Shown here one piece after another: positions 11,557 to 50,391 of a DNA stretch of 64,000 nucleotides. Positions within the stretch are counted from its first letter, which is position 1; each line of letters starts with the position of its first letter. A program made the position numbers and the translations under genes. The stretch is taken from positions 71,062 through 135,061 of the forward strand of contig JAFZTS010000002.1 in assembly GCA_017618715.1 (NCBI GenBank), read 5' to 3'. This DNA is from Bacteroidales bacterium (lineage in GTDB: Bacteria > Bacteroidota > Bacteroidia > Bacteroidales > UBA3663). The notes under the pieces are model-generated. The model ran no database searches and had not been told where the DNA came from. It saw only the letters and a list, made by a program, of their open reading frames with translations.

Positions 11557-12093
11557 TTAAGCCTCAGTAGCAGCAGCGGCAGCTTCAGCAGCGGCAGCAG
11601 CCTCAGCGGCAGCGGCAGCAGCCTTAGCGGCTGCCTCAGCCTTCTTGGCCTCCAGGGCCTCTTTCTTGGCATTCTTGACTGCAATCTCGGCATTGGTGGC
11701 TTCCTTCACCTTCTTGGCAGCCTCGGCAGCAAGACCAGAAATCTTAGAAGAGATCTTAGCCTCCTTGGCTTTCATCCAAGCGTCGAACTTAGCCTGAGCC
11801 TGCTCAGCGGTAAGAGCACCCTTCTTCACACCACCATTAAGGTGCTTCATCATCAGGACACCCTTGTAAGAGAGGATACGACCAGCGGTGATAGTGGGTT
11901 GTGCACCGGTTTCTACCCAATAAAGGGCGCGGTCGAAATCGAGTTGAATAGTAGCAGGGTTGGTGTTTGGATTGTAAGTACCGATCTTCTCAATATACTT
12001 ACCATCACGTGGCGCTCTGCTATCTGCGACTACGATGCTATAGACAGCGTAGTCCTTGTGACCATGTCGTGCAAGACGGATCTTTGTAGCCAT
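11557..12093 (-). CDS. rpsP: 30S ribosomal protein S16 with Ala/Lys-rich C-terminal extension
   Basis: [42 protein letters not shown] is canonical S16. The tail [27 protein letters not shown] is encoded by GCN repeats. Confidence 0.95.
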
Positions 12094-42818: not shown

Positions 42819-44132
42819 ATGGAGGAACTCATGTATTTCGTTTGGCAGCAGCGTCTCTTCCTCACCATCGAGACGCCAGACCATCAACCCCTCGACATAC
42901 TCCATCCAGGACTACGCAACTACGACGCTGGACCTGACTTCTTTAACGCAAAGGTCAAGGAAGACGGCATCGTGTGGGCCGGTAACGTGGAGATGCATGT
43001 CAAGGCATCCGACTGGTATCGCCATCATCATCAGGACGATCCCGCCTACGATTCGGTGATTTTGCACGTCGTCATGGAACCTGACACTGAGGTACGACTG
43101 CGCAATGGCACACCAATCAAGACCGTGGTAATGCACATCCCCGATGATTTGATGAAACGATACCGTCAGCTTTGCAGCGGCAGTTCTGCCCCGCTCCTGC
43201 CTGGACAAGTACCAACCTATTCGTCCATTTCCTGTTCAAGCCGATTGGATCAGGTGCCGAACGTGGTGTTGCACGACTGGTTGACAGCCCTTTGCACCCA
43301 ACGAATGATCGAGAAACTCCAACGTGTGCGTGACCTCGTTGAAGGACAGCTCAAGGCATGGCCCGAAGCGTTCTATGTGGTGCTCACACGAAGTCTCGGC
43401 ACAGGCGTAAACAGCGACAACATGGAGCGATTGGCACGCAGTCTGCCCTATAGTTGTCTGCTGCATCATAAGGATAACTTTCTGCAGATTCAAGCCCTTT
43501 TGCTTGGTCAGGCAGGCCTCCTGCAAATGCAGGATGCGGAATCAAAAGATGCAAAAGACCAGCAGGAATGGCGACTAATGCAGCGCGAATACGCTTTCTT
43601 GAGGCAGAAATTCAGCCTTACGCCTCTCAATGGGTCCTACTGGAAGATGGGGCGTGTGCGTCCTCCCGCACAGCCTGAAGCTCGTTTACGTGCCTTGGCC
43701 AAGCTTATTTGGACACATCAGGACCTCTTCGATGAAGTACTCGAAGCCAACAGTTTGGAACAACTGGAAAAGATTTTCGGAGGAAAGGGCCTCGGTCGGC
43801 AAACGGTACGTAGCCTTATCATCAATGCCGTTGTTCCTCTCCTACTTGCCTATGCACAGTGGCAAGGCGATGACGAGCGCTGCGAAAAGGCACTCAATCT
43901 GCTCGAAGAACTTCCTCCAGAAAGCAATCGATACATCAACCAATGGATTGAGGCTGGCATCACCGTAAAGTCCGCCATGGACACACAAGCTTTGCTCCAT
44001 CTCTTCAAGAACTACTGCCAGCCACATAAATGCTTGCGTTGCCGCATCGGTTGCTGGCTGCTGAAAAAGGCCGACACATCCCCATCAAGTGGTGAAAGCC
44101 CACTCCAAGTCTCAGATGAGATTCCTTTTTGA
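42819..44132 (+). CDS. DUF2851-family protein
   Basis: 437 aa. N-terminal LMYFVWQQRLF...DAGPDFFNAKVK...WAGNVEMHVKASDWYRHHH...VILHVV pattern as recalled for DUF2851. C-terminal CxxC. Confidence 0.7.
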   Translation: MEELMYFVWQQRLFLTIETPDHQPLDILHPGLRNYDAGPDFFNAKVKEDGIVWAGNVEMHVKASDWYRHHHQDDPAYDSVILHVVMEPDTEVRLRNGTPIKTVVMHIPDDLMKRYRQLCSGSSAPLLPGQVPTYSSISCSSRLDQVPNVVLHDWLTALCTQRMIEKLQRVRDLVEGQLKAWPEAFYVVLTRSLGTGVNSDNMERLARSLPYSCLLHHKDNFLQIQALLLGQAGLLQMQDAESKDAKDQQEWRLMQREYAFLRQKFSLTPLNGSYWKMGRVRPPAQPEARLRALAKLIWTHQDLFDEVLEANSLEQLEKIFGGKGLGRQTVRSLIINAVVPLLLAYAQWQGDDERCEKALNLLEELPPESNRYINQWIEAGITVKSAMDTQALLHLFKNYCQPHKCLRCRIGCWLLKKADTSPSSGESPLQVSDEIPF

Positions 44133-44138
44133 GGAAAC

Positions 44139-44558
44139 GTCCATTTTACGATTCAGAATTGGACACACGCGATTGGAACCGTCCATTTTACGATCGAGAA
44201 TTGGACGCACACGATTGGGAACGTCCATTTTACGATCGAGAATTGGACGCTCACGATTGGAAATGTCCATTTTACGATCGAGAATTGGACACTCACGATT
44301 GGAAACGTCCAATTTACGATTGTGAATTGGACACACACGATTGGGAACGTCCATTTTACGATCGAGAATTGGACGCACGCGATTAGAAACGTCCAATTTA
44401 CGATTGAGAATTGGACGCTCACGATTGGAAATGTCCAATTTACGATCGGGAATTGGACGTACGCGATTGGAAATGTCCAATTTACGATTGTGAATTGGAC
44501 GCGTGCAATCAGAAATGTCCAATTTTAGATCGGGAATTGGACGTACGCAATTTACGAC
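44139..44558. repeat. Tandem repeat: 10 x 42 bp (consensus GTCCAWTTTACGATYGNGAATTGGACRCWCRCGATTGGRAAY)
   Basis: Unit starts at 44139, 44181, 44223, 44265, 44307, 44349, 44391, 44433, 44475 and 44517, an exact 42-bp period. Each unit has the inverted repeat GTCCAATT/AATTGGAC with a 10-nt loop. There are no unique spacers. Confidence 0.95.
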
Positions 44559-44726: not shown

Positions 44727-44854
44727 AATCGAAATGAATCCTTAAGTACAAATAAATTGTTTACTTTTGTGTAAAATTGACACTTATTATTGGAGGCTCC
44801 CCAGTAAGAGGATGAGCCAAACAAGAAAAACACTTCAACCAAAAAACAAAAACA

Positions 44855-45184
44855 ATGGAATTAACATTTGAGAAATGGGATAACGGCAAATGGTATGTCG
44901 TACTGCCAGAATGGGATGGATTACAAGAAGACCTTGAAATGGTCGATGGAGCCGACACACTGCTTGACTTCTTGACAACTGACGGAATGTATGTCACGCT
45001 TGAAGTGAGCCTGGACGAACAACCCGATTGGGCTTTGCTGGAACTGGCGGATCACGATGCCATGGGAGGCACTTATAACGTCCACAACGTGGAAGGATTC
45101 CATCAAGAAGCTTGGCTTTGCAACGTCGTCCATTTCGTTTTCGACGAACACCCTGAATACATTTACTTCAAAGTAGTAGAATAA
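44855..45184 (+). CDS. Small, strongly acidic hypothetical protein
   Basis: 109 aa with 13 Glu + 12 Asp against 3 Lys + 0 Arg. Followed by a strong hairpin. No family recognised with confidence. Confidence 0.55.
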   Translation: MELTFEKWDNGKWYVVLPEWDGLQEDLEMVDGADTLLDFLTTDGMYVTLEVSLDEQPDWALLELADHDAMGGTYNVHNVEGFHQEAWLCNVVHFVFDEHPEYIYFKVVE

Positions 45185-45202: not shown

Positions 45203-45298
45203 AATCCCCCGCCATCGCATTTTAACGATAGCGGGGGAAATTTATGAATAAACAAAGGAATAACTTGAGATCCTCAACAGAGGCCTGAGCTGCAGTCA
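45203..45298. repeat. Degenerate duplicate of the ppdK 3' end plus terminator (partner at 46531-46623)
   Basis: aatcccccgccatcg is identical in both copies. The right hairpin arm is 13/15 identical. The 35-nt coding-end segment at 45264-45298 matches 46589-46623 at 31/35 positions (AAQASVEDLKL versus [10 protein letters not shown]). Confidence 0.8.
45205..45238. terminator. Hairpin (orphan copy of the ppdK terminator) after the acidic-protein gene
   Basis: tcccccgccatcg / cgatagcggggga: a 13-bp stem with 1 mismatch and loop cattttaa. Confidence 0.55.
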
Positions 45299-46585: not shown

Positions 46586-49320
46586 TTACTTGAGATCCTC
46601 AACAGCGGCCTGTGCGGCAGCCAGACGTGCGATGGGCACGCGGAATGGAGAGCAGGAGACGTAGTTGAGACCTACGCGGTGGCAGAACTTAACTGACGAT
46701 GGCTCACCGCCGTGCTCGCCGCAGATACCGCACTTGAGATCGGGACGTACCGAACGGCCCTTCTGTACAGCCATCTGGATGAGCTGACCAACACCCTTCT
46801 GGTCGAGTACCTGGAATGGATCGACCTTGAGGATCTTCTTGTCGAGATAGACAGGAAGGAAGCTGGCAATATCGTCACGCGAATAACCGAAGGTCATCTG
46901 GGTAAGGTCGTTGGTACCGAACGAGAAGTACTCGGCGCGAGCAGCTACTGCATCGGCAGTGAGGGCAGCACGTGGAACCTCGATCATCGTACCTACCTTG
47001 AACTCGAATGGCTCAACGCCTTCAGCCTTGAAGAGCTCGGCAGCAGTCTTGCGAATGACAGCTTCCTGCTGGTCGAACTCGTGGTGCTTGCCGACGAGTG
47101 GAACCATGATCTCGGGATGCGGGTCGTGACCTTCGCGACGGAGCTGGATAGCGGCGCCGAGGATGGCCTTGGTCTGCATCTCAGTGATCTCGGGATAGGT
47201 GTTGCCCAGACGGCAGCCACGGTGACCGAGCATCGGGTTATTCTCGGAGAGTGAAGCTACACGGCCCTGGATGTATTCCAGGCTTACACCCATGGCTTCA
47301 GCCATCTCCTCCTGACCCTTCAGATCATGAGGTACGAACTCGTGAAGCGGTGGGTCGAGCAGACGGATGTTGACTGGAAGTCCGTCATGGCGAGGAGGAT
47401 GCCGTAGAAGTCCTTGGTCTGGTAAGGCAGCAGCTTGTTGAGTGCCTTCTCACGACCAGCCTTGTCCTCAGCAAGAATCATCTCGCGCATGGCTTTGATC
47501 TTCTCACCCTCGAAGAACATGTGCTCGGTACGGCAAAGACCTACACCGACAGCACCGAAGTTACGAGCCACGGTAGCATCGTGTGGAGTATCGGCATTGG
47601 TGCGTACAACGAGCTTGGTGTACTTGTTGCAGAGATTCATGAGTTCGGCGAAGTCGCCGGAAATCTCGGCAGCCTTGGTCTCAACCTCGCCAAGGATTAC
47701 CTGGCCGGTAGAACCATTGAGTGAGATGAAGTCGCCCTCCTTGAGGGTGATATCCTCAATCTTGACAGTCTTCTCAACATAGTCAACCTGGATAGCACCA
47801 GCACCCGAAACGCAGCACTTGCCCATACCACGTGCCACAACGGCAGCGTGTGAGGTCATACCGCCACGGCAGGTGAGGATACCCTCGGCAGCTGCCATAC
47901 CAGCGAGATCCTCGGGAGAGGTCTCGATACGTACCATGATGACCTTGTGGCCATTCTTGTGCCATGTCTCAGCATCGTCGGCATTGAAGACGATCTGACC
48001 GCAGGCAGCACCAGGAGAGGCGGGAAGACCAGTGGTGAGAACCTTGGCCTTCTTCAGGGCGTTCTTGTCGAAGACGGGGTGCAGCAGCTCGTCGAGCTTC
48101 TGAGGCTCGCAGCGCTGGATGGCAGTCTTCTCGTCGATAAGACCCTCGTGCATAAGGTCCATGGCAATCTTGACCATTGCAGTACCGGTGCGCTTGCCGT
48201 TACGGGTCTGGAGGAACCAGAGCTTGCCTTCCTGTACGGTGAACTCCATGTCCTGCATGTCGTGATAGTGATTCTCGAGCTTGGTCTGCAGGGCGTCGAG
48301 CTCCTTGTAGATCTCGGGCATGGCCTCTTCCATCGAAGGATACTTGGCGGCACGCTCTTCCTCGGAAATCTCGGCACGCTTTGCCCAACGACGAGAGCCC
48401 TCGATGGTGATCTGCTGTGGTGTGCGGATACCGGCCACAACGTCCTCACCCTGTGCATTGACGAGGTACTCACCATTGAAGATGTTCTCACCCGTAGCAG
48501 CATCGCGGCTGAAGCATACGCCAGTAGCCGAAGTGTTGCCCATGTTGCCGAATACCATAGCCATTACGGAAACGGCTGTGCCCCACTCTGCGGGGATGCC
48601 CTCCATCTTGCGATAGAGGATAGCACGCTCGTTCATCCAAGAGTCGAACACGGCGCAGATGGCGCCCCACAGCTGCTCGTAAACGTCAACGGGGAATGCC
48701 TTACCGGTGCGCTCCTTGATCATGGCCTTGAACTTGGTGACAAGTTCCTGAAGGCCCTCTACGGGGATGTCCTTGTCAAGAACAACATTGTACTCCTCCT
48801 TCACCTTCTCGATGATAGCCTCGAATGGATCGATATCGGTCTTGTTGACCGGCTTGAGACCCATCACAACGTCACCGTACATCTGCACGAAACGACGATA
48901 GGAATCCCATGCGAAGTGAGGATTGCCAGTCTTCTTGGAGAGGCCTTCCACTACCTCGTCGTTGAGACCAAGGTTGAGGATGGTATCCATCATGCCTGGC
49001 ATGGAAGCACGGGCACCTGAACGTACAGAAACAAGCAGTGGGTTGGCTGGATCGCCAAAGGTGTTGTTCATCAGCACCTCGATATGCTTGACAGCAGCCA
49101 GCACATCGTCCTTGAGGACTTCCACTACGTTGTCCTTTCCAATCTGGTAATACTCATTACAAACGTCGGTCGTAATGGTGAATCCAGGAGGAACGGGCAC
49201 TCCAATAAGATTCATCTCGGCAAGGTTAGCACCCTTGCCACCCAGAAGATTTCTCATGTCTGCCTTACCTTCAGCCTTACCATTGCCGAAGAGATAGACG
49301 CGCTTTTTGTTTTCTGCCAT
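46586..49320 (-). pseudogene. ppdK: Pyruvate, phosphate dikinase interrupted by a 1-nt deletion (or a sequencing error)
   Basis: Two ORFs (47320-49320, 666 aa; 46586-47305, 239 aa) together cover a full-length PPDK of about 905 aa. After ...DFYGILLAM (ATG at 47386-47388) the homologous frame [20 protein letters not shown] continues in the -1 frame. The phosphohistidine region GGMTSHAAVVARG and the C-terminal TIM-barrel domain are intact. Confidence 0.85.
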
Positions 49321-49536: not shown

Positions 49537-50391
49537 TCAATCGTACACGCCATAATCAGGCGCATCAGCAGGTGCCTTGACGACCTTGTCGGCATCGATT
49601 TCGAAGAGGGCGGTTAGCACTCCAGTGAGCTGGACACATAGCGTAGTCTTGCGCTTGTAGATTGGATTGCCTTCGCTGTCGAGAATCTGATTGCCCTGGC
49701 GATCCTTCTCATATTCCTGTTTGCTCACCGTCTCGCGGACGGAGGCGAGGTAGGCGACATGTCCGCGGAGAGGACCTTCGAGTACCAGCACCTTGTCGCC
49801 GATAGCGTAGGTGGGTTTTTCGACCGATTCGAGCCAGTCAGCTTCGCTCAATGCCTTGAACTCGAGCATCTGGATGTCGGGAATGGGCTGCGGCCAATGG
49901 CGGGTGCGATCGTTGAGGAAGCCGACGACGTATTCGGAGATGCGACTGTGGAACAACGGATCACGATTGTCGAGGATGGTGTGCACAAAGATGATTCCAG
50001 GTGTCTGCACCTTCTCCTTCCACACCATGCGGTCGGAGTACTTGACATGGACGCGCTTGAGAGGGACGAAACACTCCATCAGCACCTTTTCGGGTTCGAC
50101 AGGAATGAAGAGATCTTCTTTCTTGGCCTTGGCGCGACGACGCTTCTTCTTCGTATCGATGCCCATAAGATAATCGTGAATCTGCATCTCGTGTCCCGGA
50201 TGCACATAGACAGCGTACCAATGAAGGGTTGAATAGTGCCGCTTCTTGGCCATACGAGTCAGTTCGGTGGGATCGTTGAGCTCCTGAAGCGTAGGGAGTA
50301 TTCTGGGTGGTTGCTCAGTATTGGGTTGCTCGTTGACGGGCTGCTCGTTAATAGGTTGCTCGTTAATGGGTTGTTCGTTGTTTTCGGACAT
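49537..50391 (-). CDS. NusG-paralog transcription antiterminator (UpxY-like) with N-terminal EQPxN repeats
   Basis: 284 aa. NGN-like region HWYAVYVHPGHEMQIHDYL...GIIFVHT. KOW-like IGDKVLVLEGPLRGHVAYLASV. N-terminus NEQPI NEQPI NEQPV NEQPN TEQPP (15-bp DNA period). Confidence 0.7.
   Translation of the reverse strand: MSENNEQPINEQPINEQPVNEQPNTEQPPRILPTLQELNDPTELTRMAKKRHYSTLHWYAVYVHPGHEMQIHDYLMGIDTKKKRRRAKAKKEDLFIPVEPEKVLMECFVPLKRVHVKYSDRMVWKEKVQTPGIIFVHTILDNRDPLFHSRISEYVVGFLNDRTRHWPQPIPDIQMLEFKALSEADWLESVEKPTYAIGDKVLVLEGPLRGHVAYLASVRETVSKQEYEKDRQGNQILDSEGNPIYKRKTTLCVQLTGVLTALFEIDADKVVKAPADAPDYGVYD

Follow-up and report, generated by a model that had tools for sequence, protein, structure and literature searches.

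Palindromic 42-bp tandem arrays at intergenic sites in rumen Bacteroidales: a lineage-restricted non-coding family

A ten-unit array directly behind a DUF2851 gene

The window analysed here, a 64,000-nucleotide stretch of a Bacteroidales genome, carries ten 42-bp units arranged head-to-tail and free of indels at 44133-44552 on the plus strand, as laid out in register and counted by column. The register opens at 44133, directly 3' of the TGA of a DUF2851 gene (44130-44132), and the first hairpin arm lies 6 nt past the stop codon. Tandem Repeats Finder (TRF) reports the repeat at 44133-44543 with a period of 42, 9.8 copies, 87% matches, 0% indels and a score of 547. A scan for the hairpin pattern returned ten plus-strand matches inside the array and none elsewhere in the 64 kb, where shuffled sequences lead one to expect none. 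The first-pass annotation had proposed ten exact 42-bp units beginning 7 nt after the stop codon; the repeat was confirmed by TRF and by layout, and its limits shift to those given here, with the register directly after the stop codon. The features of the locus are as follows.

42819-44132, plus strand: DUF2851 gene, 437 aa (Pfam PF11013, E=6e-109; orthologous loci)
44112-44522, minus strand: 136-aa open reading frame through the array, judged spurious (not conserved; no gene call in full-length same-species contigs)
44133-44552, plus strand: array of ten A modules, 42 bp each, head-to-tail (TRF, register layout, column counts, pattern scan)
44139-44164, plus strand: module 1 palindrome, GTCCATTT-N10-AATTGGAC, T.T mismatch at the sixth pair, loop TACGATTCAG (layout and pattern scan, as for the nine palindromes below)
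44181-44206, plus strand: module 2 palindrome, GTCCATTT variant, loop TACGATCGAG
44223-44248, plus strand: module 3 palindrome, GTCCATTT variant
44265-44290, plus strand: module 4 palindrome, GTCCATTT variant
44307-44332, plus strand: module 5 palindrome, perfect 8-bp arms, loop TACGATTGTG
44349-44374, plus strand: module 6 palindrome, GTCCATTT variant
44391-44416, plus strand: module 7 palindrome, perfect 9-bp arms CGTCCAATT/AATTGGACG
44433-44458, plus strand: module 8 palindrome, perfect arms
44475-44500, plus strand: module 9 palindrome, perfect arms
44517-44542, plus strand: module 10 palindrome, perfect arms, degenerate loop TTAGATCGGG
44762-44769, plus strand: TACTTTTG, putative -7 promoter match read from the sequence, 86 nt upstream of the DUF6717 ATG
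44855-45184, plus strand: DUF6717 gene, 109 aa (Pfam PF20475; flank graph)
45205-45238, no strand assigned: first terminator-like GC-rich hairpin after DUF2851, beyond DUF6717 (terminator scan)

The consensus of these units, here termed module A, is GGAAACGTCCAWTTTACGATYGNGAATTGGACRCNCRCGATT, with the palindrome GTCCAWTT-N10-AATTGGAC; the orientation of the array is set by a conserved loop half, TTTACGAT. The inverted repeat GTCCAATT/AATTGGAC had been described for every unit. It is perfect in five of the ten, while units 1-4 and 6 read GTCCATTT and so contain a T.T mismatch. ATTGG/CCAAT had been counted three times per unit; CCAAT is found only in the five units with A at column 12. Six of the ten units do carry GATC in the loop, which had been taken as the usual form, but the exact loop TACGATCGAG appears in only four. 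Because column 21 is either C or T, GATC is not a conserved feature, so the earlier emphasis on GATC and methylation falls away, and a relevance of Dam was rejected on the same ground. The proposed series of 21-bp half-sites was recovered: RCGATYGRRAAY, with at most one mismatch, stands at 17 consecutive positions of exact 21-bp spacing (44148-44484). Seven further matches lie in the window outside this series, and TRF matches at the 21-bp period reach only 56-59%. Repetition extends to the 10-nt loops and 16-nt linkers, in which a few columns have two states.

Three modules in a single register

A search for the unit in other genomes and in metagenome contigs uncovered a dispersed multi-locus family built from three interchangeable 42-bp modules, which the first-pass annotation had not foreseen. 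In addition to A there are two further palindromic types, B and C, each exactly 42 bp long and able to take the place of A; no solitary B or C module was found in the window. Arms measure 8-9 bp in A, 13 bp with an internal mismatch in B and 13 bp in C. The dyads of the three palindromes (26, 32 and 34 bp) nevertheless fall on the same column, longer arms being matched by shorter linkers, and because they share this column the dyad-to-dyad spacing is always 42 bp. Across the family, arrays may be A-only, B-rich or strictly alternating A/B, and modules run head-to-tail throughout, as judged by the asymmetric loop half and the linkers.

Conservation is concentrated in the arms. At the DUF2851 site each array shows 0-1 arm departures per 126-140 arm positions, whereas four-fold degenerate sites differ by 30-46%; loops and linkers drift while the 8-bp arms stay almost invariant. 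The spacer next to the array is gap-ridden between species, whereas the array is virtually indel-free even though its units differ by 10-13%. Within the 26-34-nt palindromes, variation is concentrated at unpaired positions, and a mismatch is kept in B and common in A. Conservation is also asymmetric about the dyad, the 5' loop half TTTACGAT being conserved and the 3' half, YGNG, free. Much of the variation is CpG-to-TpG/CpA drift, in which the loop CpG is conserved while other CpGs decay.

Pair 12/27 changes from A.T to T.T or A.A and is never compensated, and B hairpins keep their internal mismatch through several different base combinations. Neither compensatory base changes nor covariation were found in any stem, all of them being invariant or carrying uncompensated mismatches; this absence leaves hairpin folding neither proved nor disproved. 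Folding is strong on both strands of the array (z = -15.1 and -9.9), and the plus strand folds 36 kcal/mol better than the minus strand.

Distribution and genomic setting

Arrays of A units occur at 38 genome loci in about eight rumen Bacteroidales MAGs and at 89 metagenome loci, in a census that took in loci with at least one exact pattern match from incomplete MAGs and metagenome contigs. The host range thus comprises about eight rumen Bacteroidales/Prevotellaceae species together with many rumen metagenome contigs. The 88 complete arrays, all of them intergenic, collapse to about 13 orthologous locus groups and contain 2-11 modules with a mode of 9-10, the maximum of 11 being that seen in short-read assemblies. 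Nearly all A modules (709 of 739) sit in arrays, and a single genuine solitary locus was found. Ten of 13 loci adjoin a gene 3' end with gaps of 0-80 bp and the other three lie between divergent gene starts; relative to flanking genes, arrays are sense at four loci, antisense at four and in divergent regions at three. Both in the window and at 10 other array flanks, the adjoining genes have housekeeping roles. This family of 42-bp arrays is apparently undescribed.

A dispersed REP/MITE lacking positional conservation had been named among the outcomes that would refute the first-pass interpretation. The arrays are indeed dispersed and REP-like, yet their position is strongly conserved. The boundaries of 25 arrays from different loci have only partial linkers in common, without a shared leader, tail or terminal inverted repeat, and MITE-like ends were rejected on this basis. 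No target duplications were seen at the arrays, and there was neither a transposase among 17 array-flanking proteins scanned nor a recurring partition or DNA-binding gene among the scanned flanking proteins. A phage or plasmid origin was rejected after blastn against phages and plasmids gave no matches and scans of viral contigs for modules A and B gave 0. Searches of Rfam returned no match at gathering thresholds, and when E was relaxed to 10 the only hits were noise that scored far below gathering. Another array, L144, with a 42/84-bp period, gave no nhmmer match to the 42-bp units and was rejected as a homologue, the period alone being held in common. At 8 of 11 locus groups the flanking sequence, read in array orientation, has a negative GC skew, a trend that is not significant and is confounded by gene orientation; a link between orientation and replication was rejected accordingly.

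L037, L009, L028, L003 and L035 all carry the DUF2851-site array, with flanks 79-85% identical. DUF2851 acts as an anchor gene, the array staying at its 3' end in all array-bearing species, and the site is empty in more distant relatives whose DUF2851 is 77, 70 and 59% identical. Compared unit by unit, the arrays of the closest species show 95.9% identity in register vs about 88% out of register. The behaviour of a hypervariable VNTR, one of the possibilities raised at the outset, is evident in the window's own species, where contigs carry 10 or 6 units at this site with hybrid units at the junctions, and module number ranges from 5 to 11 within orthologous groups. Five of eight same-species assemblies ended inside this array. 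It is well supported that the arrays are vertically inherited and that slippage or unequal recombination adds or removes whole modules in register. One subtype dominates at at least five different loci in the window's species group, whereas in the sister group each locus has subtypes of its own; this suggests inter-locus homogenisation. The flank graphs are star-shaped and show no exchange between anchor genes, and reciprocal recombination between arrays was rejected on this basis.

Downstream of the array, DUF6717 starts 302 bp away in a flank that varies between species: the genes following the DUF2851-site array are DUF6717 or ORFs of 201, 176 or 122 aa, depending on the species. The array itself aside, no terminator-like site was found between the DUF2851 stop codon and DUF6717. 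In the A/B species the array is flanked by the DUF2851 stop on one side and, on the other, by a hairpin which, read by eye, has GC-rich (C5/G5) arms; a consensus scan of these species found no terminator-like site at that position. The putative promoter element TACTTTTG fits TAnnTTTG, the Bacteroidetes -7 promoter consensus. A different layout is found at the YgjP-type locus, where a C hairpin is followed by nine A modules and a bidirectional intrinsic terminator, the last of which stands between array and gene. Even where the upstream flank is a different one, the C hairpin stays with the array, forming a 'leader' at this locus only, and no conserved promoter was found upstream of the arrays there.

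What the arrays may do

That the window array is one copy of a lineage-restricted family of non-coding palindromic-unit tandem arrays is well supported. As to its role, the best explanation, held tentatively and at slightly less than an even chance, is by analogy a REP/BIME-like palindromic-unit minisatellite that would serve as an orientation-independent multi-hairpin block at gene ends. The array would then behave like an E. coli REP/BIME cluster, in particular a tandem BIME-2-type cluster such as the 12-hairpin REP325. It would be transcribed as a 3' extension of DUF2851, because no other terminator lies between DUF2851 and DUF6717, and the transcript would fold into a stack of hairpins. 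By holding up 3'-to-5' exonucleases, such a stack would stabilise the message upstream, and it would also reduce read-through into the gene that follows. Either orientation would serve, the units being palindromic. E. coli REPs, too, are described as imperfect palindromes that vary mainly where bases are unpaired and keep an internal mismatch; they form clusters of 1-12 palindromic units, among which REP325, between two tandem genes, is both a terminator and an mRNA stabiliser (bioRxiv 10.64898/2026.03.23.713779).

Several observations stand against the REP-like reading. Three of 13 loci lie between divergent gene starts, compared to about 1% of E. coli REPs (bioRxiv 10.64898/2026.03.23.713779). 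A bidirectional terminator intervenes between gene and array at the YgjP-type locus, and no stem has undergone a compensatory base change. Modules run head-to-tail instead of in BIME-like alternation, REP units within clusters being described as alternating in orientation (Nunvar 2010), and neither a RAYT nor another partner gene was seen among the 17 scanned flanking proteins. Furthermore, a role as RNA hairpins does not call for dyads that keep a strict 42-bp spacing whether the palindrome measures 26, 32 or 34 bp.

Such spacing would come naturally to an array that works as duplex DNA, the phased protein-binding array (iteron or centromere) among the first-pass proposals, a reading that is rather unlikely. 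The palindromes would be sites of a dimeric sequence-specific protein, ten of them 42 bp (four helical turns) apart on one helical face and assembled into a nucleoprotein complex, with A and B perhaps bound by paralogues. Complexes of this kind, sopC-like and set at roughly a dozen chromosomal sites, could serve nucleoid organisation or act as a boundary or roadblock. The three dyads on one column of the register agree with it, as does the near absence of indels despite unit differences of 10-13% and a gap-ridden adjacent spacer. Arms conserved as sequence, with the W position uncompensated, point the same way, as do the independence of orientation, the occurrence in divergent promoter regions, the preference for arrays over single units (709 of 739 A modules) and the narrow mode of array length at 9-10 modules; the sopC architecture is a documented precedent (PMC3177203). 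However, a symmetric dimer would not be expected to preserve TTTACGAT while leaving YGNG free, and the mismatch that B hairpins keep is of consequence when a single strand folds and not in duplex DNA. Among the scanned neighbours there is no recurring partition or DNA-binding gene, and the constant length of the arrays could simply reflect indel-free descent with in-register recombination. Because the family is confined to a few species, the array cannot be a core chromosome function.

In a bolder and decidedly unlikely form, the arrays would be multivalent, helically phased landing pads for a putative sequence-specific factor, forming sopC-like complexes at about 12 fixed chromosomal sites of one rumen Prevotellaceae lineage. 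The factor might be a paralogous pair for the A and B palindromes, or a single-stranded ATTGG/CCAAT-hairpin binder. If true, the arrays would constitute a chromosomal centromere-like or domain-boundary system made of interchangeable 42-bp modules, with array length kept near 9-10 modules.

It is unlikely, too, that the arrays are selfish or neutral minisatellites devoid of host function. Their hairpin units would promote slippage and in-register gene conversion, units with intact palindromes would be preferentially duplicated by molecular drive, and arrays would persist just beyond stop codons where they are tolerated. Whole-unit gain and loss with hybrid units inside one species, the range of 5-11 modules within orthologous groups, the spread of one subtype over at least five loci in the window's species group, the prevalence of CpG-to-TpG/CpA drift and the restricted host range are all consistent with such turnover. 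Even the ten of 13 loci at gene 3' ends fit a rough estimate of about 75% for random intergenic placement. What neutrality explains poorly is constancy confined to certain columns: with neutral sites 30-46% diverged, the arms have changed at only 0-1 of 126-140 positions, and the loop CpG is conserved while other CpGs decay. Column-specific conservation is hard to obtain by conversion alone, because the loops and linkers of the same units are not homogenised. Arrays also occupy the same sites across species, with unit order kept in closely related species; signs of recent transposition (target duplications, leader/tail, transposase) are missing, and there are almost no solo units.

A stand-alone non-coding RNA gene or small-RNA precursor with its own promoter is very improbable. 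Its product would sequester an RNA-binding protein, as CsrB/RsmZ do, or be cut into 42-nt units in the manner of ToxI or pre-crRNA. The layout of the YgjP-type locus, whose C hairpin moves with the array ahead of nine A modules and a bidirectional intrinsic terminator, is suggestive of this, and so are the presence of RCGATYGRRAAY in both loop and linker, every 21 nt, and the 36 kcal/mol advantage of the plus-strand fold. On the other side are the failure to find a conserved upstream promoter, the absence of an adjoining toxin, cas or nuclease gene, the mixed orientation to genes, with most arrays adjoining a stop codon, and the lack of covariation and of any Rfam family match even at E up to 10.

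Finally, the idea that the array encodes a 14-residue-repeat protein, in the 136-aa minus-strand frame or in a plus-strand frame continuing that of DUF2851 (repeat GNVQFTIENWTHAI), is effectively refuted. The 136-aa frame reported earlier does exist (44112-44522), the period is divisible by 3 and indel-free, and gene callers have placed ORFs on truncated contigs. Yet in a six-frame test over 31 arrays no frame is open in all, the best is open in 15 and the 136-aa frame in only 9, with 4-8 stops in orthologous A/B arrays; this upholds the earlier view of the array as non-coding. Moreover, an in-frame TGA interrupts the YgjP-site subtype consensus, the L009 array is 1 nt out of the DUF2851 frame, arrays occur in both orientations relative to anchor genes, full-length same-species contigs have no called ORF and Pfam matches are only sub-threshold noise. 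A codon-phase test found third-position variation highest in frame +0 in all A subtypes, which would favour coding; this excess is absent from B modules and, with the constrained columns identical in all subtypes, it is not independent evidence. Coding was thus rejected on six frames (31 arrays), codon-phase variation (seven subtypes) and read-through of the DUF2851 stop.

If the REP-like reading is right, the REP/BIME kind of element extends to uncultured rumen Bacteroidales in an unusually regular form, with interchangeable palindromic modules, a fixed 42-bp register and few conserved sites. The family would then offer a clean natural system for asking whether RNA 3'-end structure or a phased DNA-binding platform is at work, and for studying the enforcement of unit length and inter-locus homogenisation within one genome. 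In practice, the arrays break short-read assemblies and attract spurious ORF calls, and they could be strain-typing VNTR markers for rumen Prevotellaceae.

Comparison with known systems

Regularly spaced palindromic repeats recall CRISPR and ToxI. ToxI is a tandem array of 36-nt units. The 42-bp arrays differ from both in having no unique spacers, no cas or toxN-like neighbour and many loci per genome, and from type III toxin-antitoxin loci in that no fixed endoribonuclease gene lies downstream, the downstream genes varying by species and locus. The earlier judgement that the array is not CRISPR-like therefore holds, given the lack of unique spacers and its housekeeping neighbours; no cas genes were found among the neighbour proteins scanned at the window and 10 other array flanks. 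CRISPR, ToxI and known RNA families were rejected for want of spacers, cas/toxin neighbours or an Rfam match.

MIRU-type VNTRs of Mycobacterium and BOX elements of Streptococcus pneumoniae are dispersed intergenic minisatellites with 40-100-bp units whose number varies between strains. MIRUs are co-oriented with flanking genes, and their small ORFs overlap the stop or start codons of these genes; the 42-bp arrays resemble them as dispersed intergenic minisatellites of strain-variable copy number (10 vs 6 units) and differ in their mixed orientation and lack of a conserved frame. In BOX elements a modular boxB with stable folds is repeated variably between fixed terminal boxA and boxC, and such fixed terminal modules are absent from the 42-bp arrays. 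Within the same bacterial order, BrickBuilt of Porphyromonas gingivalis is a minisatellite-MITE of about 19 intergenic loci per genome near coding sequences, with 23-nt units and conserved leader/tail subunits bearing small inverted-repeat ends (PMC4596501). It is likewise a lineage-specific intergenic minisatellite, but the units of the family described here are palindromic modules of 42 bp, and its loci have neither leader nor tail nor terminal inverted repeat in common.

SopB binds sopC of plasmid F, which consists of twelve 43-bp repeats with a 16-bp inverted repeat in every one (PMC3177203). Both systems thus have some 10-12 direct repeats of 42-43 bp with an inverted repeat in each, whereas sopC is a single plasmid locus beside sopAB and the present arrays occupy about 13 chromosomal loci with housekeeping neighbours. 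No par genes were found among the scanned neighbours, and blastn gave no plasmid match.

The GTAG/CGTC REP superfamilies are defined by a conserved, unpaired four-base tag at one end, the CGTC type having an 8-9-bp stem, a 4-5-nt loop and a 3-nt tail; they are mainly head-to-head dimers, head-to-tail being described as negligible (PMC3733652). Bacteroidetes are among the groups from which CGTC repeats are on record (Di Nocera et al. 2013, PMC3733652). The present elements are also short stem-loops with 8-9-bp stems, window-type hairpins start with CGTC (CGTCCAATT) and GTAG precedes some A/B-type units. However, the window-type CGTC overlaps the stem (G7, T8 and C9 are paired) and is not an unpaired tag, GTAG is variable (GTAG, GTGG, GCAG, GGAG, GGAT), the loop is 10 nt instead of 4-5 nt and the units run head-to-tail. 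With the tag paired or unconserved, membership was rejected.

From E. coli REPs the arrays are set apart by phylum, by the lack of a conserved unpaired GTAG tag and by numbers: 355 loci there and about a dozen here, and more than 100 copies per genome with many single units or pairs there, compared to about 13 locus groups and units almost never solitary here. E. coli BIMEs alternate their units, whereas these arrays are head-to-tail with strict 42-bp dyad spacing. The likenesses are nonetheless extensive. REP units are imperfect palindromes of 20-50 nt that lie only outside genes, and the 26-34-nt palindromes of the intergenic 42-bp arrays agree with this. Both are extragenic imperfect palindromes of about 30 nt in regular arrays of up to about 12 units, both are mosaics of unit types (Y/Z1/Z2 in E. 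coli, A/B/C here), and in both variation falls mainly at unpaired positions and most loci are at gene 3' ends. REP325 in particular shares the tandem-gene layout seen in DUF2851-array-DUF6717.

A family of palindromic tandem arrays

The feature is well supported as belonging to a non-coding, vertically inherited and lineage-restricted family of tandem arrays built from palindromic units. In the window it is laid out as follows:

42819-44132, + strand: DUF2851 gene, 437 aa (Pfam E = 6e-109)
44133-44552, + strand: 42-bp repeat array, ten head-to-tail units (Tandem Repeats Finder, TRF, and register layout)
44855-45184, + strand: DUF6717 gene, 109 aa, 302 bp past the array end

The first base of the array directly follows the TGA of the DUF2851 gene, and there is no terminator-like site after that gene before 45205-45238. 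Over 44133-44543, TRF counts 9.8 copies at period 42, 87% matching and free of indels. The unit consensus is GGAAAC-GTCCAWTT-TACGATYGNG-AATTGGAC-RCNCRCGATT, and a pattern scan of the 64-kb window found the hairpin pattern in this array only, with none expected by chance. A first-pass annotation holds in most of its details but needs correcting in some. Its inverted repeat of 8 bp, assigned to each unit, is perfect in five of ten; the other five carry GTCCATTT and hence a T.T mismatch; its GATC-containing loop, TACGATCGAG, is exact in four units, and GATC is present in six. The proposed 21-bp sub-period holds as a motif, RCGATYGRRAAY matching at 17 consecutive positions spaced exactly 21 bp apart. 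Other repeats in the window include a CAGCAG/GCAGC-rich tandem repeat at 11560-11640 (overlapping TRF periods of 6-21 bp), and a 15-bp repeat of 4.7 copies at 50309-50379, within the minus-strand ORF 49537-50391, which encodes N-terminal NEQP(I/V) pentapeptides of a 284-aa NusG/UpxY-like protein.

The window array belongs to a dispersed family. A degenerate hairpin pattern, run against a single genome for each species, returned 38 loci which, barring a few single chance matches in unrelated phyla, come from some eight MAGs of uncultured rumen Bacteroidales/Prevotellaceae (cattle, sheep, buffalo, reindeer), with several arrays per MAG and matches 42 or 84 bp apart; a metagenome scan added 89 loci. 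Phage collections, plasmid collections and viral contigs contain no match to the array units, Rfam gives no family match to the array even at E up to 10, and a description of the family was not found in the searchable literature.

Three modules in one register

Across the family (loci are denoted by L-numbers), the period that TRF detects is 42 in some arrays and 84 in others, the latter consisting of module A, the only type in the window, alternating with module B. Module B, GCATACAG-N16-CTGTATGC, is in effect a hairpin whose arms measure 13 bp, and B-rich arrays of period 42 occur too (L027). Module C, AGCATGACCAATC-N8-GATTGGTCATGCT, precedes A units in phase at one locus, beside a YgjP-like peptidase gene, and stays with that array when the upstream flank differs. 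The elements at the two ends of this array are:

L011:1871-1904: module C (likewise in L010, L055, L062, L063, L116 and L126)
L011:2295-2320: bidirectional intrinsic terminator, at the opposite end from C

The palindromes span 26 bp (A), 32 bp (B) and 34 bp (C), all with dyads at column 19.5 of the 42-bp register, and linkers are shorter where palindromes are longer. Nearly all A modules (709/739) lie within arrays. A solitary A hairpin is genuine at one locus only (L004:3025-3050, L087:2649-2674, L021:55-80), with a 10-bp stem in L004 and L087 (ACGTCCAATT...AATTGGACGT) and a stem extended to 13 bp in L021 (GACGCGTCCAATT...AATTGGACGCGTC). Complete arrays (n=91) hold 2-11 modules, none exceeding 11.6, with a mode of 9-10; the upper bound could partly be an assembly limit, which the mode cannot be.

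In a relative whose DUF2851 is only 65% identical, a different tandem array lies about 440 bp downstream of that gene (L144:3130-3500), with a 42-bp period, an 84-bp super-period, 95% matches, CGCCACGATGTGGRAA every 42 bp and a called 84-aa ORF. Since nhmmer finds no significant similarity to window-type units, the two have only their period and a brief linker-like resemblance in common.

Genomic context

The 88 complete arrays fall into about 13 orthologous locus groups, and every array is intergenic. Ten of the 13 loci have the array 0-80 bp from a gene 3' end, and three have it between the starts of divergent genes; measured against the nearest gene end, four loci carry it in sense and four in antisense orientation. 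Its neighbors are ordinary (dnaE, typA/bipA, glycerate kinase, DUF6057, YgjP-like peptidase, helicase, GH97, laccase-like protein), and transposase, par, cas and toxin genes are absent among the flanking genes examined. Flank graphs are star-shaped, tying each array to one anchor gene end (DUF2851, DUF6057 and YgjP-like genes among them) while the other flank differs by species; they reveal no exchange between anchor genes, and different loci have neither leader, tail nor terminal inverted repeat in common. At the YgjP-type locus the terminator separates gene from array. In A/B species the array at the DUF2851 site lies between the stop codon and a hairpin, read by eye, whose arms are GC-rich (C5/G5); a consensus scan calls no terminator there.

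On the non-anchor side, synteny is often lost precisely at the array edge (L001-L141). The gene after DUF2851 is, by species, DUF6717 or an ORF of 201, 176, 122 or 276-318 aa, and L029 has a different upstream gene with the same downstream flank. Flanking GC skew in array orientation is negative at 8/11 locus groups, not significantly and confounded by gene orientation; it may reflect an orientation bias relative to replication or the prevailing direction of transcription.

Persistence and turnover

At the DUF2851 site, L037 and L009 have A-only arrays of 10 and 9 units (flanks 84-85% identical), and L028, L003 and L035 have alternating A/B arrays of 11 modules (flanks 79-82%). The site has no array in relatives with DUF2851 identities of 77, 70 and 59%, in which the stop codon is directly followed by the next gene. 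Orthology unit by unit is preserved in the closest species pairs; in L003/L028, identity is 95.9% between units in register and about 88% between units out of register. The signal is gone at about 15% flank divergence. In one species group subtypes are locus-specific and common to several species. The window's group has a single subtype at at least five loci, which suggests that homogenisation or replacement has occurred between loci.

The window's ten units recur in two independent assemblies. Among same-species contigs, defined by identical DUF2851 or DUF6717 proteins, L045 has six units, the junction being a hybrid of units 2 and 6, and L046 has a hybrid of units 8 and 10; the array is thus a VNTR that varies by whole units. 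Short-read assemblies of this species often end inside it (L041, L042, L043, L046-L051). Downstream, the window's pyruvate phosphate dikinase gene (46586-49320) is split into two ORFs (239 + 666 aa; junction about 47305-47320), while same-species contigs encode an intact 911-aa protein. Against L044 and L045, blastn aligns 1685 bp with just one gap, of 1 base, and the split is either an assembly frameshift in the window or a true pseudogene.

Constraint without coding or covariation

Among the window, L037 and L009, 30-46% of DUF2851 four-fold degenerate sites differ and 52/306 columns of the non-repeat spacer alignment are gapped, while the arrays show no indels and only 0-1 departures per 126-140 non-degenerate arm positions (14 per unit) in each. 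Loops and linkers vary in the same units, largely by CpG-to-TpG/CpA changes (columns 6, 21, 33 and 37), and the loop CpG at columns 17-18 is conserved, a pattern hinting at methylation-driven decay of cytosines plus local protection or selection. Because the conservation is column-specific, which array-wide homogenisation alone would not give, it speaks for selection acting on the arms and on the 5' half of the loop (TTTACGAT).

Protein coding is rejected: no frame is open throughout all arrays, the best reaching 15/31. The 136-aa minus-strand ORF of the first-pass annotation is present in the window, but as a gene it fails, being open in 9/31 arrays and interrupted by 4-8 stops in orthologous A/B arrays. 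A third-codon-position excess in the + frame recurs across A subtypes and is absent in B; it is not independent evidence, as all subtypes have the same constrained columns. The YgjP-site subtype consensus has an in-frame TGA in the + frame, the L009 array is offset by one base from the DUF2851 frame, and full-length same-species contigs carry no gene call on the array. On truncated contigs (L041, L042) gene callers place spurious minus-strand ORFs of 85 and 70 aa.

Both strands fold far more stably than shuffled controls (+, -198.7 kcal/mol, z = -15.1; -, -162.3 kcal/mol, z = -9.9); at minimum energy the array forms one long fold-back, not ten individual hairpins, because every unit is quasi-palindromic. 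A stems are near-invariant, at least 207/209 units being identical at each pair save 12/27, where T.T (35 units) and A.A (8) occur and compensation is never seen. In B, a formal count finds no compensatory changes and pairing is lower than in every shuffle, a result whose strength the p-value overstates, as units are related by descent. The deficit arises because central pairs 11/28 and 12/27 are rarely intact together (10/203 unique units, via several base combinations; L003, L028, L035, L012 and others), and B hairpins almost always retain at least one internal mismatch. Covariation is uninformative or negative; B is thus a maintained imperfect palindrome, as in REPs.

Possible mechanisms

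By analogy, a mechanism like that of REP/BIME elements is tentatively favored. Against it stand the three loci between divergent genes, the terminator parting YgjP from its array, the lack of covariation, and an exact 42-bp dyad spacing that an RNA role does not need. That spacing, arms conserved at the sequence level and orientation independence would suit a phased duplex-binding platform resembling sopC (12 repeats of 43 bp that each contain a 16-bp inverted repeat; PMC3177203), an unlikely alternative; against it, loop conservation is asymmetric, a mismatch is maintained and no partner gene is seen beside the arrays. A function-less minisatellite spread by molecular drive is about as unlikely, disfavored by column-specific constraint and long persistence at the same positions. 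A stand-alone or processed RNA, for which the C-A9-terminator layout at one locus is the only point in favor, is very improbable. The array family is real and tidy, with unusual regularities, and would become weightier if a specific binding factor or RNA role were demonstrated.

Comparison with known systems

Membership in several known families fails. BIMEs alternate in orientation and reach high copy number; in the GTAG/CGTC REP superfamilies the tag is unpaired, loops are 4-5 nt long and dimers are head-to-head (PMC3733652), points on each of which the array departs; and the Porphyromonas gingivalis BrickBuilt minisatellite-MITE is bordered by a leader and a tail whose ends are inverted repeats (PMC4596501), which the array loci do not share. 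CRISPR, ToxI, sopC-type centromeres and MIRUs each fail as well. The favored REP/BIME-like reading draws on E. coli, where REP clusters comprise 1-12 palindromic units of three types in which mainly unpaired bases vary, and where the 12-hairpin REP325, between two tandem genes, is both a partial terminator and an mRNA stabiliser (bioRxiv 10.64898/2026.03.23.713779). The window likewise has a gene-array-gene layout, DUF2851-array-DUF6717, and on this reading its array would work as REP325 does, partially terminating transcription and stabilising mRNA.
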